Source: a virus. Taken from it: DNA of 64,000 nt. The stretch spans positions 72,790-136,789 of IMG/VR virus record IMGVR_UViG_3300045988_133811; one strand, given 5' to 3'. Under the pieces are notes generated by a model. That model saw only the letters and a list, made by a program, of their open reading frames with translations. It searched no databases and was not told where the DNA came from. Below are positions 3,978-41,138 of the stretch, piece after piece. Position 1 is the first letter of the stretch; every line of letters begins with the position of its first letter. A program made the position numbers and the translations under genes.

Positions 3978-4010
3978 AGACAAGTCAAAACACGGCTTGT
4001 CTATTTTGTT
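3978..4010 (+). terminator. Rho-independent terminator (agacaag ... cttgtct + attttgtt)
   Basis: 7-bp stem, 11-nt loop, T-rich tail. Confidence 0.6.
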
Positions 4011-4060
4011 GAACCTATAAAGAAAAATAAAGTCCCGTAAAGGGCAGAAAGAAGGGTGTT

Positions 4061-4325: not shown

Positions 4326-4637
4326 ATGAATAAAATGAATGGGTTTTACTTTTTGATGGGTTGCAAAGATGTTTTTGTTAAAACAGAAAAGAAAAATAAA
4401 ACAGTAGGTTTAGCCAAAGAAATTTGTGAGAAAATGGGATATCCAGCGAGCCAAAACAATGTAACCGAGTTGATCCGCAGATTACAAAAGGCAACGTATC
4501 AGCTTACTATACTTTCCAATGGTAGAAAATGCCACGATATAAAAGGAAATGGATTTTCTTATGGAAGTTTTGTTGACGAAAATAATACGATTATTATTGA
4601 TTTAAATAAACCAGGAGGAAAGAACAATGGAAAATAA
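4326..4637 (+). CDS. Hypothetical protein (103 aa)
   Basis: ORF with RBS aggaggtaaaaag. Confidence 0.55.
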   Translation: MNKMNGFYFLMGCKDVFVKTEKKNKTVGLAKEICEKMGYPASQNNVTELIRRLQKATYQLTILSNGRKCHDIKGNGFSYGSFVDENNTIIIDLNKPGGKNNGK

Positions 4638-4821
4638 GACACAATTACATAAACCAAAACTAACAGATATAGCCGTTGCGATTGTATGGATTGCGATGGC
4701 TATTGTTACGTTTATAAGAATACCGCAAGCCTTCATTTTAGAAGCATTATTGGTAATTATTACCGCTGTCTATATGCTTGCTTGCGTTGGATTTTTTGAT
4801 GATACAGATATAGAAGAATAG
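4627..4821 (+). CDS. Small membrane protein (two predicted TM helices)
   Basis: RBS aggaggaaag; hydrophobic stretches IAVAIVWIAMAIVTFI and ALLVIITAVYMLACVGFF. Confidence 0.5.
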   Translation: MENKTQLHKPKLTDIAVAIVWIAMAIVTFIRIPQAFILEALLVIITAVYMLACVGFFDDTDIEE

Positions 4822-4841: not shown

Positions 4842-5450
4842 ATGAAAACAAAACAGAACAAAACAATCAAGATCTTATTAGCCGTAGCACTCATGTTTAC
4901 GGCTTTTTTAATGATGGAAAATACAGTACACGCAAAGACAAAAAGAAGCACGTACAGAACGATAAACGGCATTTATAACAGTGACGGCACAATTGACACG
5001 GTTGACGGCTACTGTTGGAAAGTTCGCAAGGGATCATATGCCTATCCAGGGACTACCGTTGTAACTGTAAAATTTAACACACACGGCACTAGAAATAAGC
5101 TCGATGATAGCATTGTAAAGATCGTAGCAAAGAATAGAAATATCCAGCTTGTAAACGATTATATACGCAGAAATTACGATCTAAACGCCTATAAGGTAAA
5201 GTATATCAACACTAGAAAATTAACGGATAAAATGATCCGTGAATGTGCCACACGACATACGATTTACGTGGAAATTATCAAAAGTGTTTCTGCTGGTGGT
5301 AGACATGGAACGTATGGAAAAAACTACTACATTGCCTATAACAAACGTGTACGCAAAGGAAAGCACGTAACAAGCTATTGTGTATGGAATCCTTGCAATA
5401 GTTACTGCGATGACGTAGAAGCCGTGACAGATAATGGAAAAATCAGATAA
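4842..5450 (+). CDS. Secreted protein with N-terminal signal peptide (MKTKQNKTIKILLAVALMFTAFLMMENTVHA)
   Basis: RBS gaaagaaggt; a typical signal peptide ending AKT. Confidence 0.6.
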   Translation: MKTKQNKTIKILLAVALMFTAFLMMENTVHAKTKRSTYRTINGIYNSDGTIDTVDGYCWKVRKGSYAYPGTTVVTVKFNTHGTRNKLDDSIVKIVAKNRNIQLVNDYIRRNYDLNAYKVKYINTRKLTDKMIRECATRHTIYVEIIKSVSAGGRHGTYGKNYYIAYNKRVRKGKHVTSYCVWNPCNSYCDDVEAVTDNGKIR

Positions 5451-5459
5451 GAAGGAAGG

Positions 5460-5702
5460 TTGGAAATCATGACAACGATTACTATATACAGAAACAAACG
5501 CAACAAAAACAAATATATAGAAGTCCATAACGATGGATATTATCATAACTCTGTAAAACAGTATATGCAATGGAAAAAAGATCACAATGGAAATCAGCTT
5601 GCCAAACCTATCAGAAATGAAACGGGGGATCGAGTATTGCATAGATGGAAAAAAGCAAACCTGATGGAGCTACTGGAAGATTATGAACTGATTACAGCAT
5701 AG
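5460..5702 (+). CDS. Hypothetical protein (80 aa)
   Basis: ORF with RBS gaaggaaggttgg. Confidence 0.5.
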   Translation: MEIMTTITIYRNKRNKNKYIEVHNDGYYHNSVKQYMQWKKDHNGNQLAKPIRNETGDRVLHRWKKANLMELLEDYELITA

Positions 5703-38350: not shown

Positions 38351-38528
38351 ACAAGAATCATTGAAGTTTTTACAAAGTTTGATTGATGAAGTAGAAAATT
38401 GGACAAAAGAAGATATTGAACGAGCGCAGAAGTTGATGGAGAAAATAGATAAAGAAGAGCCAAAAGAAGTTGAAAATAGTGATGGGTATTGGGAATTTAT
38501 AATGCCAGATGGCAAAGGAGTGAAGTAG
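38343..38528 (+). CDS. Small acidic hypothetical protein (61 aa)
   Basis: Track frame 38277..38528; ATG 38343 overlapping the upstream stop (ATGACTAA), RBS ggaagg. Confidence 0.45.
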   Translation: MTKQESLKFLQSLIDEVENWTKEDIERAQKLMEKIDKEEPKEVENSDGYWEFIMPDGKGVK

Positions 38529-38530
38529 AT

Positions 38531-40162
38531 ATGGCTAAAAAACAAGACGATAATACAATGACAATTACAAGGAAGATCACGTTAATTCCTGTCGCAAGCG
38601 AGCGAAAAGAGTGGAAGAAAAGAATTGATGCTTTCTTAGAAAAAGATTTTCCAAGAAAAATTGAAGCAAAGAAGAAACAGATTAAGAACACAAGTAAACC
38701 TGAAAGAGTAGATGGGTATAAACAACAACTTGCAGAATTAGAAAAGCAATATAAAGATTTCAAAGAAAATGGGATTAAAGAATACACTCATAAAATGGCG
38801 AGTGATTATACATATGATATTGTAAGAAGGGCAATGGAGAGTGAAGCAAGACGAAAGAACTATATTTTATCTTATATATATACAAAAATGATACAAGACG
38901 AAGTGGCAAATTTACCGACTCTTACAGAAAAGAATAAATGGGTGAGCACCAATGTAAAAGAGTGTTACCGTAAAGCAGGTAATAAGAATGGTAGTATCTT
39001 TACAAATGTTGACATTGATAATCCATTAGCAGGATATGGATCTGATTTCGGTCAAGCATTTACAAGAAAAATTAAAAAATTAATCAAAGACGGCATACTG
39101 GAAGGAAATGTTTCTGTGCCGAATTATAAATTAGATTCTCCTTTTGCTTTAAGCAATCAAAATTTTGGTATTTTTACAGATTGTGAAAATATAACAGAAT
39201 TAAAAAAGAATATTGGTAAGCCTACATATCCAGTATATGTGTGTTTAGGCAAGCATGGTCTTCCAACGATTGCTAAATTCAAGATTAATTTTGGACATAA
39301 ACAAAATAAGAATAAGGCAGAATTAATTTCAACAATTATTAAGATTCTTACAGGAGAGTATTCGGTTGGCGGAAGCACATTCGGTATTGATGACGATAAA
39401 ATAGAAATGAATTTAAGTATAACAATGCAGAAACAAAAAATGGATTTAGATGAAAATACTGTTGTTGGCGTTGACTTGGGACTTGCTGTTCCTGCCGTAT
39501 GTGCTTTAAATAATAACGAATACGACAAACAATATATCGGAAGTGGGAATGATTTTGTTACAAGAAGAACAAAATTTCAAAATGAATATACACAGTTACA
39601 AAAAGCTTTAGAATTGGCAAAAGGTGGACATGGAAGAAAAAGAAAATTATTAGCTTTAGAAAGGCTAAAAGAAAAAGAAAAGAATTTTGTTGATACATAT
39701 TGCCATCGAGTTAGTAAAAAAGTTGTTGATTATGTAATCAAACATAGAGCAAAATATATCAACATAGAAAATTTAAAAGGGTATGATTCAAGTGAATTTG
39801 TTTTAAGAAATTGGAGTTTTTATAAGCTACAGCAATATATTACATATAAAGCGGAACAATGTGGAATCATAGTTAGAAAAATCAATCCGTCATTTACATC
39901 TCAAGTGTGTAGTTTTTGTGGGCATTGGGAAGAGGGGCAAAGAAAAGATCAGGCAACATTTAAATGCAAGAATCCTAATTGTAAAAGTCACAAATTATAT
40001 ACTGTAAACGCAGATTATAATGCGGCTAGAAACATCGCAATGTCAACACAATTTACAGACGATAAATTTAAATGTTCAAAAGAAACGATTCAAGATGCGG
40101 CAGATTATTATGGAATCGTCTTAGAAGATGATAAAAATAATGATAATAAAAAAGCTGCTTAA
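38531..40162 (+). CDS. Compact TnpB/Cas12-like RNA-guided nuclease candidate (RuvC-I/II/III + C-terminal zinc finger), 544 aa
   Basis: Track frame 38489..40162; start at the ATG 38531 after the RBS aaggagtg. RuvC-I VVGVDLGLAVPAVCAL, RuvC-II YINIENLKG, zinc finger CSFCGH...CKNPNCKSH, RuvC-III TVNADYNAARNIAM. This is the canonical TnpB/Cas12f C-terminal architecture. The N-terminal 330 aa has no recognised motif. Confidence 0.75.
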   Translation: MAKKQDDNTMTITRKITLIPVASERKEWKKRIDAFLEKDFPRKIEAKKKQIKNTSKPERVDGYKQQLAELEKQYKDFKENGIKEYTHKMASDYTYDIVRRAMESEARRKNYILSYIYTKMIQDEVANLPTLTEKNKWVSTNVKECYRKAGNKNGSIFTNVDIDNPLAGYGSDFGQAFTRKIKKLIKDGILEGNVSVPNYKLDSPFALSNQNFGIFTDCENITELKKNIGKPTYPVYVCLGKHGLPTIAKFKINFGHKQNKNKAELISTIIKILTGEYSVGGSTFGIDDDKIEMNLSITMQKQKMDLDENTVVGVDLGLAVPAVCALNNNEYDKQYIGSGNDFVTRRTKFQNEYTQLQKALELAKGGHGRKRKLLALERLKEKEKNFVDTYCHRVSKKVVDYVIKHRAKYINIENLKGYDSSEFVLRNWSFYKLQQYITYKAEQCGIIVRKINPSFTSQVCSFCGHWEEGQRKDQATFKCKNPNCKSHKLYTVNADYNAARNIAMSTQFTDDKFKCSKETIQDAADYYGIVLEDDKNNDNKKAA

Positions 40163-40166
40163 GTAT

Positions 40167-40309
40167 TTGGTGTGTTTTGGAGGGAGTGCCGAACTCCCTC
40201 AACCATAAATAAAATGGTTACGCCAAAAGTGAGGAGAAATCACTCACTAAAATTTGTGTAATGAGACAGAATGTAAAGTTTTGCATTGTATACATAATTA
40301 AGATTTGAG
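40167..40309 (+). ncRNA. tracrRNA-like structured scaffold, copy 1 (starts at the nuclease stop codon)
   Basis: tttggtgtgttttgg + GC hairpin ggagggagt-gccga-actccctc + hairpin aaccat-aaataaa-atggtt + acgccaaaagtgagg-agaaat-cactcactaaaat + anti-repeat atttgtgtaat, ending in atttgagg at the repeat junction. Confidence 0.6.
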
Positions 40310-40411
40310 GTTTTAGAACCATTCAAAATTACACAAATACAAAACAAAAGAACGGCTTGTATGAATTTTCTCCGTGTTTGAGAATCATTGAAAATTACAC
40401 AAATAAAATAC
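40310..40411 (+). CRISPR. Mini CRISPR-like array 1: two related 36-nt repeats (about 30/36 identical) flanking one 30-nt spacer
   Basis: gttttagaaccattcaaaattacacaaatacaaaac | aaaagaacggcttgtatgaattttctccgt | gtttgagaatcattgaaaattacacaaataaaatac. Confidence 0.55.
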
Positions 40412-40547
40412 ATGGCATGTTTTGGGAAATTTTATTCCAATTAAAATTTCTGGTCATGGAATTGTGGCTATGCCAAAAGTGAGACCGTAAGGTACTCACT
40501 AAAATCTATGTAAATTAGGTAACAAAAATTGGACAAAAGAATTTGAG
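40412..40547 (+). ncRNA. tracrRNA-like structured scaffold, copy 2
   Basis: catggcatgttttggg + AT hairpin gaaatttta-ttccaa-ttaaaatttc + ...gctatgccaaaagtgag-accgtaaggta-ctcactaaaat + anti-repeat ctatgtaaattaggta + atttgagg junction. Same architecture as copy 1 with base-pair-preserving changes. Confidence 0.6.
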
Positions 40548-40715
40548 GTTTGATACCTATTTAATTTTACATAGGTACAAAACCGATCGAAGAAAAATTT
40601 AAGGAAAAGGGGAGTTTGATACCTATTTAATTTTACATAGGTACAAAACGTGATTACAGTAATGCAGTGTCAGAATGTGGTTTGATACCTATTTAATTTT
40701 ATGTTATTAGCTCAA
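40548..40715 (+). CRISPR. CRISPR array 2: 36-nt repeat gtttgatacctatttaattttacataggtacaaaac, two perfect copies plus a degenerate terminal copy; two 30-nt spacers
   Basis: Repeats at 40548-40583 and 40614-40649 are identical. Terminal copy 40680-40715 matches the first 22 nt. Spacers cgatcgaagaaaaatttaaggaaaagggga and gtgattacagtaatgcagtgtcagaatgtg. The repeat has an internal palindrome tacctat/ataggta. Confidence 0.8.
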
Positions 40716-40735
40716 TAAAAGAAAAATTTTAAAAT

Positions 40736-40860
40736 ACTTGGTGTGTTTTGGGAATATATATGAAATATTCTGCTCAAATAGTATTGAGTACGCCAAAAGT
40801 GAGGCTTATTATAGCACTCACTAAAATCTATGTTATTTTGTCGGATTTATGTTATTTGTG
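40736..40860 (+). ncRNA. tracrRNA-like structured scaffold, copy 3
   Basis: cttggtgtgttttggg + hairpin gaatat-atatgaa-atattc + ...gagtacgccaaaagtgagg-cttattatag-cactcactaaaat + anti-repeat ctatgttatttt. Confidence 0.6.
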
Positions 40861-40957
40861 GTTTGACAGCTATTAAAAATAACATAGGTACAAAACCTCA
40901 AAAAAGGCAGTATCTGTGGTAGGGTGCTGCTTGGCAATCATTAAAAATAACAAAATC
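40861..40957 (+). CRISPR. Mini CRISPR-like array 3: 36-nt repeat gtttgacagctattaaaaataacataggtacaaaac + 30-nt spacer + degenerate repeat
   Basis: Shares 5' gtttga and 3' ataggtacaaaac with the array-2 repeat. Spacer ctcaaaaaaggcagtatctgtggtagggtg. The following ctgcttggcaatcattaaaaataacaaaatc keeps only the central attaaaaataac block. Confidence 0.5.
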
Positions 40958-40970
40958 TAAAGGAATAAAA

Positions 40971-41138
40971 ATGAAATCAAGACGACAACGTAAACAGGAA
41001 ATAAAACGATTCTTTGATCGGTTGAGTCCGCAGGAATTGGACGCACTGTTAGAAAGAAATGGAATCAATGATAAAGAGTCAAAAGAGGCTCTTTCATATA
41101 GAATTATTAAAGAAGAAATTGAGAAAGGAGAGATATAA
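40971..41138 (+). CDS. Small basic/acidic hypothetical protein (55 aa; below the ORF-track threshold)
   Basis: ATG 40971 after aaggaataaaa; MKSRRQRKQEIKRFFDRLSPQELDALLERNGINDKESKEALSYRIIKEEIEKGEI; stop overlaps the next start (TAATG). Confidence 0.45.
   Translation: MKSRRQRKQEIKRFFDRLSPQELDALLERNGINDKESKEALSYRIIKEEIEKGEI

Follow-up and report, generated by a model that had tools for sequence, protein, structure and literature searches.

A probable phage-borne type V-F CRISPR locus with one Cas12f and three co-varying tracrRNA-plus-mini-array cassettes

Cas12f nucleases combine a TnpB-like RuvC fold with a C-terminal zinc-ribbon (TNB) domain in 400-700 amino acids, and they work as homodimers on one guide RNA at targets with a 5' T- or C-rich protospacer-adjacent motif (PAM). 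The conserved core of the Cas12f1 single-guide RNA (sgRNA) comprises stem 1, a pseudoknot and stem 2, plus the repeat:anti-repeat stem 5, and the core is common to the right-end RNA (reRNA) of TnpB (PMC12255294). Tested sgRNAs are available for the Cas12f-MG119 family, which includes Al3Cas12f (supplementary file 3 of PMC13186708). Here we describe a locus in 64,000 nucleotides of the IMG/VR virus record IMGVR_UViG_3300045988_133811 (positions 72,790 to 136,789; hereafter the window, numbered from its first nucleotide), in which a cas12f gene is followed by three scaffolds that resemble trans-activating CRISPR RNAs (tracrRNAs), each with its own very short CRISPR array. We consider it highly probable that this is a phage-borne type V-F (Cas12f1-like) CRISPR locus, with one nuclease-competent Cas12f and three paralogous guide-RNA cassettes.

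The cas12f gene (38531-40162, on the + strand, as are all other features of the window given below) encodes 543 amino acids counted from the ATG, and its open reading frame (ORF) opens earlier, at TTG 38489. The product matched Cas12f1-like_TNB (PF07282; 2e-17) and OrfB_IS605 (PF01385) in Pfam, and guided_TnpB in NCBIfam at 151.7 bits. The nearest sequences in PDB were CnCas12f1 (8hr5; E = 7e-60) and Al3Cas12f (9nzo/9nzr; 7.5e-59), followed by AsCas12f, and a dCas12f (9n9c) matched at 2.4e-20. When an AlphaFold model of the protein (predicted local distance difference test, pLDDT, 86.6) was compared to PDB with Foldseek, the top 22 matches were all Cas12f chains, of which 8hr5_A was the best (E = 1.6e-26 across 541 columns), while TnpB structures ranked lower. 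The RuvC triad, consisting of D315 (VGVDLG), E413 (INIENL) and D495 (NADYNAARN), aligns with that of CnCas12f1 and is kept in 21 homologs, and the zinc ribbon CxxC...CxxxxC is unbroken, with all four cysteines conserved. By sequence and predicted fold, the window protein is a Cas12f with an intact RuvC triad, and its catalytic residues predict a nuclease-competent enzyme. It shares its fold, size class, catalytic residues and zinc ribbon with the type V-F1 effectors CnCas12f1, Al3Cas12f/Cas12f-MG119, AsCas12f and Un1Cas12f1. Membership in the same family as Cas12p, the phage-encoded miniature Cas12 "hacker", was rejected, the match to PDB 9jfs being merely 2e-4.

The guide region (40165-40962) starts 5 nt past the cas12f stop codon and contains three paralogous scaffolds, each followed by repeats and spacers. 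A previous reading of the window, made from its sequence only, had proposed a conserved core, TGTGTTTTGG...ACGCCAAAAGTGAG(G)-loop-(C)ACTCACTAAAAT, and this core is present three times, at 40165-40253 (scaffold 1, tracrRNA-like), 40410-40505 (scaffold 2) and 40736-40827 (scaffold 3). The covariance model presented below matched the three at 95.8, 81.6 and 90.1 bits, respectively. One architecture was predicted for all three with RNAfold: a closing stem, two inner hairpins with rebuilt sequence, and hairpin 3 (GTGAGG..CACTCAC), of which the core GTGAG..CTCAC is conserved throughout. The arms of the closing stem of scaffold 1 (40168-40173 and 40227-40232) enclose the hexamer GTTTTG (40174-40179) and the two inner hairpins, with hairpin 3 behind them, and the same hexamer is found at 40419-40424 in scaffold 2 and at 40745-40750 in scaffold 3. 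The rebuilt hairpins that had been noted earlier (GAGGGAGT/ACTCCCTC, GAAATTTTA/TAAAATTTC and GAATAT/ATATTC) are all part of the minimum-free-energy folds. The closing stem reads TTGGTGT/ACGCCAA in units 1 and 3 and TGGCAT/ATGCCA in unit 2, which is a compensatory change. A different helix, TTTTGG:CCAAAA, had been suggested to close the multi-branch structure; it showed no covariation and was rejected because the core GCC[AG]AA stays constant while the hexamer varies, whereas 6/6 pairs covary in the actual closing stem (TGGTGT/ACGCCA, or TGGCAT/ATGCCA in unit 2). Rfam has no family for the scaffold, and the sole matches were weak ones of the repeats to CRISPR-DR22.

Each scaffold is followed by an anti-repeat that complements the repeats of its own array, as had been claimed for all three units. 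Anti-repeat 1, ATTTGTGTAAT (40252-40262), is complementary at 11/11 positions to ATTACACAAAT in both R1a and R1b (40328-40338 and 40394-40404). In anti-repeat 2, CTATGTAAATTAGGTA (40506-40521), the segments CTATGTAA..TAGGTA form 8 + 6 base pairs with TACCTA..TTACATAG of R2a/R2b, flanking an internal loop (CTATGTAA pairs with 40567-40574 and TAGGTA with 40554-40559). Anti-repeat 3, CTATGTTATTTT (40828-40839), is complementary at 12/12 positions to AAAATAACATAG of R3a (40876-40887), and the helix extends to 14 pairs, one of them a G.U pair, if the preceding AT is included; the cognate repeat of this unit, 40861-40896, falls just beyond the segment covered by the sequence-only reading. Mini-array 1 (40310-40411) consists of R1a (40310-40345), spacer S1 (40346-40375) and a degenerate terminal repeat, R1b (40376-40411). 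Mini-array 2 (40548-40715) consists of R2a (40548-40583), S2 (40584-40613), R2b (40614-40649), S3 (40650-40679) and R2c (40680-40715), a truncated terminal repeat, and mini-array 3 (40861-40962) of R3a (40861-40896), S4 (40897-40926) and a degenerate terminal repeat, R3b (40927-40962). All three thus have 36-nt repeats, 30-nt spacers, one or two spacers and a degenerate last repeat.

The predicted duplexes between the anti-repeats (27 nt) and their cognate repeats have energies of -14.8 (unit 1), -17.9 (unit 2) and -18.4 (unit 3) kcal/mol. Non-cognate combinations gave -3.4 to -10.2 kcal/mol, so that the cognate duplexes were stronger by 4.6-15 kcal/mol. Dinucleotide-shuffled repeats gave -7±2 kcal/mol, corresponding to z-scores of -3.5, -4.4 and -5.4 for the cognate pairs (p = 0.0025, 0.0005 and <0.0005). 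It had been set beforehand that duplexes no better than chance would count against the proposed complementarities, and the cognate duplexes lie well beyond the shuffled ones. The three paralogs also differ from each other by in-register double compensatory changes at four anti-repeat/repeat positions (T-A/C-G, G-C/A-T, A-T/T-A and T-A/A-T).

Two of the units have peculiarities in this segment. Unit 3 contains a second near-copy of its anti-repeat at 40845-40857 (ATTTATGTTATTT, as compared to ATCTATGTTATTT at 40826-40838), which also complements repeat 3, overlaps the end of the leader and is kept in close relatives. The anti-repeat of unit 1 can alternatively pair with a downstream part of its own 47-nt linker in front of R1a (40263-40300; RNAfold), and the anti-repeat may be sequestered in this manner in the free scaffold. 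The long linker is peculiar to this type of cassette (type A).

We compared the locus to its relatives. A Cas12f that is 90-98% identical to the window protein is encoded on seven phage contigs of IMG/VR (44-169 kb), and all seven have the three cassettes in the same order. Their spacers differ from each other and from those of the window, except within one near-identical trio, and the differences between their repeats are located in the unpaired internal loop or yield G.U pairs. In related phages, the cas12f locus is located at a single, conserved position. A profile search yielded 80 viral loci and 62 genomic ones. From 13 scaffolds, we built a covariance model with 28 pairs, 14 of them compensatory, and this model gave 166 scaffold matches in about 90 related loci, all on the cas12f strand and located both up- and downstream of the gene. 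Likewise, a repeat matrix gave 387 matches on the cas12f strand, as compared to only 35 on the opposite strand. At least two clusters of mini-arrays were found in 72 of the 80 viral loci and at least three in 35, with 1-5 repeats per cluster and a recurring order of scaffold-repeat(s)-scaffold-repeat(s). The scaffolds come in a "full" form of about 90-100 nt and a "mini" form of about 50 nt, in which the closing stem directly caps the 6-nt loop. Across 103 distinct scaffolds, 96.9% of the cells were paired, double changes were seen in 25 of the 28 pairs, and the covariation score of 0.44 exceeded those of shuffles (0.136) and of slid partners (0.053 at most).

The pairing between scaffold and repeat was examined in 89 distinct gapless constructs, which consisted of the 5' arm, the hexamer, the scaffold end, the 14 nt after the scaffold and the first repeat. 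Two intermolecular helices were recognized. Helix 1 joins the hexamer after the 5' arm (GTTTTG) to the last 6 nt of the repeat (CAAAAC), and helix 2 joins the anti-repeat to repeat positions 18-29. Since the hexamer is located inside the closing stem and its partner outside, helix 1 forms a pseudoknot. Over both helices, 90.4% of the cells were paired, as compared to 78.3±0.6% with partners shuffled among cassettes (0/500), and the covariation score was 0.400 versus 0.166±0.008 (0/500); with slid partners, the score was at most 0.111 and pairing fell from 90% to 26-49%. Double changes were found in 14 of the 18 intermolecular pairs. Ten forms of the hexamer were identified, each opposite a complementary repeat end (e.g., GTTCTG/CAGAAC, GTTTCG/CGAAAC, ATTTCG/CGAAAT, ATTTCA/TGAAAT, ATTCAG/CTGAAC, ATTTGG/CCAAAC, ATTCGA/TCGAAC, ACTTTG/CAAAGC). 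The structural model of the sequence-only reading was therefore right about the anti-repeat:repeat pairing and wrong about the closing helix, and it had overlooked the helix between the hexamer and the 3' end of the repeat.

The same two-helix plan can be read from the tested Cas12f-MG119 sgRNAs (PMC13186708). According to our reading of these, the MG119-3 sgRNA contains GGUGU-GUUGGA-ACGCC, in which the stem is the closing-stem sequence of window units 1 and 3, with a crRNA (CRISPR RNA) that ends in UCCAAC and an anti-repeat, AAUUCAUUUA, opposite UAAAUGAAU. Similarly, the MG119-2 sgRNA contains GGGCA-AUUUUAU-GUCC and a crRNA ending in UAUAAAAC. The order of the elements, that is stem with hexamer loop, hairpin and anti-repeat, is the same as in the window. 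The locus follows the dual-RNA logic of type V-F1, in which the anti-repeat:repeat helix is stem 5 and a loop of the tracrRNA forms a pseudoknot with that end of the repeat which is proximal to the guide. As expected for tracrRNAs, the scaffolds represent non-coding genes next to the effector gene with an anti-repeat and a covarying structure, including the pseudoknot with the 3' end of the repeat. As expected for CRISPR arrays, repeat and spacer lengths are constant and spacers vary between strains, in arrays that are very short (1-5 repeats). That the tested sgRNAs share the two-helix plan makes it most likely that the scaffolds function as Cas12f tracrRNAs. The effector, the conserved layout and the family-wide covariation all support the earlier view that these are working tracrRNA:crRNA-like duplexes rather than decayed duplications.

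Homologous mini scaffolds were also identified in distant bacterial relatives (L092, L097, L099 and L103, from Anaerotignum, Ectobacillus, Bacillus and a metagenome-assembled genome), such as in L099, in which the loop GTTGCA lies opposite the repeat end TGCAAC. The bacterial loci that we examined have one scaffold and one array of 8-16 repeats. In the phage clade, an effector is instead accompanied by two to five or more cassettes of a tracrRNA and a mini-array, which lie both up- and downstream of its gene. Their anti-repeat/repeat families have diverged and co-vary, the tracrRNAs directly abut the array, and the scaffolds are very short, at about 50 or 90 nt. Judged from these loci, the multi-cassette layout characterizes the phage clade and is not shared with the bacterial relatives examined.

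We propose the following model for how a cassette might work. Each cassette starts with a tracrRNA-like scaffold of about 90 nt, followed by an anti-repeat, then by a short leader ending in ATTTGAG and finally by a mini-array with a degenerate last repeat. The anti-repeat directly 3' of hairpin 3 would bind the centre of the repeat, at positions of about 20-29, and the hexamer would bind the end of the repeat next to the spacer, in a helix that would cross the closing stem and create a pseudoknot, as is typical for guide RNAs of Cas12f and TnpB. The closing stem, hairpin 3 and the following AAAAT are likely to represent the protein-binding core common to all cassettes. The distance from the scaffold end to the first repeat is mostly 7-57 nt, with a few longer ones of up to 118 nt, and because such short linkers leave no room for a separate array promoter, the scaffold and the array are probably co-transcribed. 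The first repeat-spacer would then fold in cis, like an sgRNA, while later units would pair with the scaffold in trans.

The set of cassettes varies between loci, with A-B-C in the window, A-B-D in L014 and A-E-B-D in L019 and L042. In L018 (4997-5220), a hybrid was seen in which repeats that end in CAGAAC follow a scaffold with the hexamer GTTTCG, giving one mismatch; in L019 and L042, this hexamer is matched by CGAAAC repeats. This suggests recent recombination between cassette types. Both observations suggest that cassettes are inherited, and probably exchanged, as units, and the co-evolution of each repeat family with its neighbouring scaffold would be explained in this manner.

Upstream of each scaffold, at a distance of 2-3 nt, TAAAAT was seen by eye (TTAAGT for unit 1; 40404-40411, 40730-40737 and 40157-40166). 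In cassette 1, the motif lies within the mutated 3' end of the degenerate terminal repeat, in which ACAAAAC has changed to AAAATAC, and this change is kept in relatives. It is possible that the terminal repeat was exapted here as a -10 element, although none was called in the consensus scan. In more distant loci, a GC-rich hairpin (e.g., GGGTAGC-GTAATT-GCTACCC) was observed at a distance of about 17 nt from the scaffold, on its 5' side. In L034 (4640-4675), L036, L020, L041 and L029 it lies just upstream of the first scaffold that follows the gene, and it was also seen in L070-L075 (2360-2440). The hairpin could terminate transcription of the upstream gene or add a further 5' stem to the tracrRNA.

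Spacer length was 30 nt in 135 of 180 cases, next to repeats of 36 nt, and 132 spacers were distinct. When these 132 were concatenated and compared to GenBank phages, a single spacer matched, from locus L031, a 48%-identical relative, with 29/29 identities to eight Lachnospiraceae, Agathobacter, Coprococcus and Dorea phages from human faeces. The 5' flank of this protospacer, AATTTTT, is T-rich. As a relative's spacer matches phages from the same group of hosts, Cas12f is probably guided against rival phages. Spacers in L056 (2553-2582) and L054 (2599-2628; also L046, L051 and L052) are reverse complements of each other over 27 nt, which we take to mean that they were acquired independently from opposite strands of one target; this argues for real adaptation events and not merely recombination between arrays. 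Within the 64 kb of the window, the longest matches of spacers and pseudo-spacers were 11-14 nt, which is the level expected by chance, and self-targeting or autoregulation by the spacers is unsupported.

Several observations weigh against a working type V-F locus with three separate guide cassettes. The four spacers of the window had no match in IMG/VR (exact 22-24-mers) or in GenBank phages, and the PAM is inferred from one protospacer only. A scan with the sigma-70 consensus yielded no convincing promoter or terminator on the + strand (18 sites, 12.7 expected), which is weak evidence as the phage encodes its own sigma factor and host-type scans may miss phage promoters. The alignment of the 103 scaffolds was fitted to the covariance model. 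Furthermore, the sequences are related by descent, which inflates the shuffle statistics, although both the control with slid partners and the large number of independent variants speak against descent as the whole explanation of the covariation. Finally, the three cassettes of the window are only partly orthogonal, since the hexamer helix is identical in all of them and the anti-repeat of unit 1 is able to pair with R2 and R3 through G.U pairs; averaged with G.U counted, non-cognate anti-repeats from the same locus paired at 9.15/12 positions, as compared to 10.96/12 for cognate ones.

Could the three units instead be decaying tandem duplications, of which one or none is functional, with complementarity left from common descent? 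They are clearly paralogs, the arrays are tiny, with 1-2 spacers and a degenerate repeat at every end, and the anti-repeat of unit 3 has been duplicated. Decay would, however, break pairs and not compensate for them, as seen in the four in-register double changes between the paralogs and in the 14/18 intermolecular and 25/28 intramolecular pairs across the family. All three units are kept at 90-98% protein identity while the spacers turn over, and the repeat variants among the phages sit in unpaired positions or yield G.U pairs, which makes decay very improbable. Chance matches would be another explanation in a region of about 30% G+C, in which short A/T-rich complements are common and 23 inverted pairs were listed. 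This was tested and rejected, with a probability that we regard as negligible, since the dinucleotide shuffles spoke against it for each of the three units independently and the pairing collapsed in the slid-partner controls.

The cassettes might also be regulatory or decoy RNAs that act, as cr-like RNAs, in autoregulation of the locus or as RNA anti-CRISPRs against a host type II-A system. In viruses, standalone repeat units and mini-arrays are known to take on regulatory or anti-CRISPR functions (PMC11656645), and R1a and R3a weakly match CRISPR-DR22, which is the reverse complement of the classical II-A repeat. That likeness is below the gathering score of 50 bits, the matches of spacers and pseudo-spacers elsewhere in the window do not exceed chance level, and the spacers are diverse, 30 nt long, swapped between close relatives and in one case directed at foreign phages. 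With a dedicated effector adjoining the cassettes whose catalytic residues are intact, we find such a role improbable. Another possibility is that the units are omega-RNA/reRNA single guides of a TnpB transposon with IS200/IS605 ends and not parts of a CRISPR system. The protein also matches TnpB models, scaffold 1 begins 5 nt past the stop codon, where the omega-RNAs of TnpB lie, and in the bacterial loci L089 and L091 a scaffold is fused to the 3' end of a repeat with no array. Against this, Cas12f structures outrank TnpB structures, no TnpA, transposase family or second copy was found among the window ORFs, the repeat-spacer-repeat arrays are true arrays with variable spacers at a fixed phage locus, and the repeat is separate from the scaffold and paired through an anti-repeat, as in dual-RNA guides; we judge a TnpB transposon to be a most unlikely origin.

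The arrangement in L091 (Roseburia sp. 1XD42-69; 3985-4060 and 2500-2680) consists of a scaffold, a short hairpin and a segment that resembles the 3' end of a repeat, ..TTATGTTAATTAAACATAATACAAAAG, and the same arrangement ending in ..TTATGTTAATTAAACATAATACAAAAG was found in L089 (Clostridium sp. AF37-5; 2773-2900 and 4586-4700), in both isolate genomes without an array. It is possible that these units represent a natural fused single guide, intermediate toward omega-RNA-like guides.

The likeness of the window to omega-RNA/reRNA systems lies in a scaffold at the 3' end of the nuclease gene and a pseudoknot that uses the guide-adjacent segment, and also in the scaffold-guide topology of the first unit if a window unit is co-transcribed. 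Unlike in those systems, there are repeats, spacers and an anti-repeat duplex, and no transposase or transposon ends were found. Tandem whole guide genes just downstream of a Cas12f-derived gene, as in the window, have been described for Sigma-TnpB/dCas12f-sigmaE (PMC10691335, PMC12259090). The Sigma-TnpB/dCas12f proteins are catalytically dead, rpoE-associated transcription factors of Bacteroidota, whereas the window Cas12f keeps its catalytic residues. The dCas12f guides are fused single RNAs of similar sequence with fixed 14-16-nt guides, for which no tracrRNA-like species or arrays have been reported, as compared to the true arrays, replaceable 30-nt spacers and diverged units with compensatory changes in the window. 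Viral CRISPR mini-arrays, which serve in competition between viruses, resemble those of the window in that they are virus-borne, have 1-3 spacers and lack adaptation genes, and the spacer of the relative is similarly aimed at phages of the same host group (PMC11656645). Classical viral mini-arrays borrow the effector of the host and copy its repeats, whereas this phage brings its own effector and tracrRNAs. Type II-A arrays share the leader end ATTTGAG, repeats that start with GTTT, 36-nt repeats and 30-nt spacers, and differ in guide polarity and effector, both of which are of type V in the window; only the junction resembles II-A. On the effector and tracrRNA features that could be tested, the locus qualifies as type V-F1-like, and not as a TnpB transposon, a II-A system or a dCas12f/sigma system.

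In a literature search that left subscription journals mostly uncovered, we found no account of diverged, co-varying tracrRNA-plus-mini-array cassettes for one active Cas12f, nor of the phage clade. A multi-cassette, phage-borne type V-F system with a tracrRNA fused to each mini-array appears to be new, while tandem guide genes were already known for dCas12f. The locus would provide a case in which one miniature Cas12f is naturally served by several diverged tracrRNA/repeat pairs. The compensatory changes map which nucleotides must pair, in two helices, and which may vary, and the 89 natural variants represent a ready mutational scan for Cas12f guide engineering. The prospects include scaffolds of no more than about 50 nt and, for multiplexing, sets of scaffolds and repeats that are partly orthogonal. 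The cassettes point to a large, apparently undescribed Cas12f clade in big phages of gut Clostridia, most likely aimed at rival phages. They are intermediate between split guides of the canonical kind and the tandem guides of dCas12f, which are fused, and the "split and re-fuse" history proposed for TnpB/Cas12 guide RNAs becomes testable on living examples.

The leaders of the three mini-arrays end in a motif as in type II-A leaders: ATTTGAG directly 5' of R1a (40303-40309) and of R2a (40541-40547), and ATTTGTG directly 5' of R3a (40854-40860). In 52 distinct leader ends (L008-L091), the consensus was ATTTGAG (A65 T84 T94 T86 G86 A71 G80 %), and TTTGAG was found in 22 of the 52 leader ends and in none of 129 spacer ends. 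The motif is absent from the four bacterial single-array relatives inspected (L092, L097, L099 and L103). ATTTGAG/GTTT is the conserved and functionally required leader-repeat junction of type II-A (group 1), which anchors spacer integration (PMC5382924). As summarised in the same paper, Wei et al. 2015 reported that 10 nt of leader plus the first repeat are enough for adaptation. No cas1, cas2 or cas4 was found among the 85 + strand ORFs of the 64-kb window, from a phage genome of about 200 kb, and no cas9 or csn2 in the 64-kb window (both with PADLOC and Pfam). Many type V-F loci likewise lack adaptation genes (PMC10691335).

The motif suggests that adaptation enzymes of a host II-A system may load the phage arrays. 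The 36/30-nt geometry, the lack of cas1/cas2/cas4 in the window and the rapid turnover of spacers would fit this idea, as would the fact that none of the four inspected bacterial relatives has the motif. The 36/30 geometry is common to the bacterial relatives too. The matches of R1a and R3a to CRISPR-DR22 scored 24.3 bits (E = 0.014) and 16.9 bits, and given the orientation of the DR22 consensus, the Cas12f repeats resemble the anti-repeat strand of the II-A tracrRNA. The unit-3 anti-repeat CTATGTTATTTTG in turn resembles the II-A repeat CTATGTTGTTTTG. These likenesses could be due to chance in AT-rich sequence. Capture of spacers from II-A arrays read in antisense predicts a 5' CCN flank; the flank of the single protospacer is T-rich, and this idea is unsupported.

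It is a tentative and rather doubtful possibility that the cassettes serve a phage weapon as self-contained "plug-in" modules for its guides, and that this weapon is re-armed by host II-A adaptation. Each module would be made as one RNA with the tracrRNA folded back on the first repeat, as a natural sgRNA, and Cas1-Cas2-Csn2 of the host would add spacers via the ATTTGAG/GTTT junction and the 36/30-nt geometry. The diverged, co-evolving tracrRNA/repeat pairs might prevent recombination or cross-talk between tandem modules, and the family could represent a living intermediate between split tracrRNA/crRNA and fused omega-RNA-like guides. If this were true, a type V effector brought by a phage would be re-armed by the type II adaptation system of its host, and the leader motif by itself suggests the use of host adaptation machinery across types.

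The window is phage DNA, with all large ORFs on one strand. Their products include a PolIII-alpha-like polymerase, a DnaB-like helicase, a RecJ-like exonuclease, Ant, three Bro-N proteins, an integrase and a sigma factor; the latter, a Sigma70_r2 protein, is not encoded next to cas12f. No gene was called by gene callers in the 809 nt 3' of cas12f. No relatives of the locus (38400-41000) were found in GenBank phages, even at blastn sensitivity. At least four metagenome samples contained an identical Cas12f with an identical downstream segment of 813 nt, and the contigs concerned reach 213 kb. We also observed MazF/PemK-like and HicB-like toxin-antitoxin parts and an SPFH/flotillin pair in the window. 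On a contig with the identical Cas12f locus (L152), two Tad2-like (anti-Thoeris) genes follow the cassettes at 4913-5517, and the cas12f locus may sit in a counter-defence or competition island.

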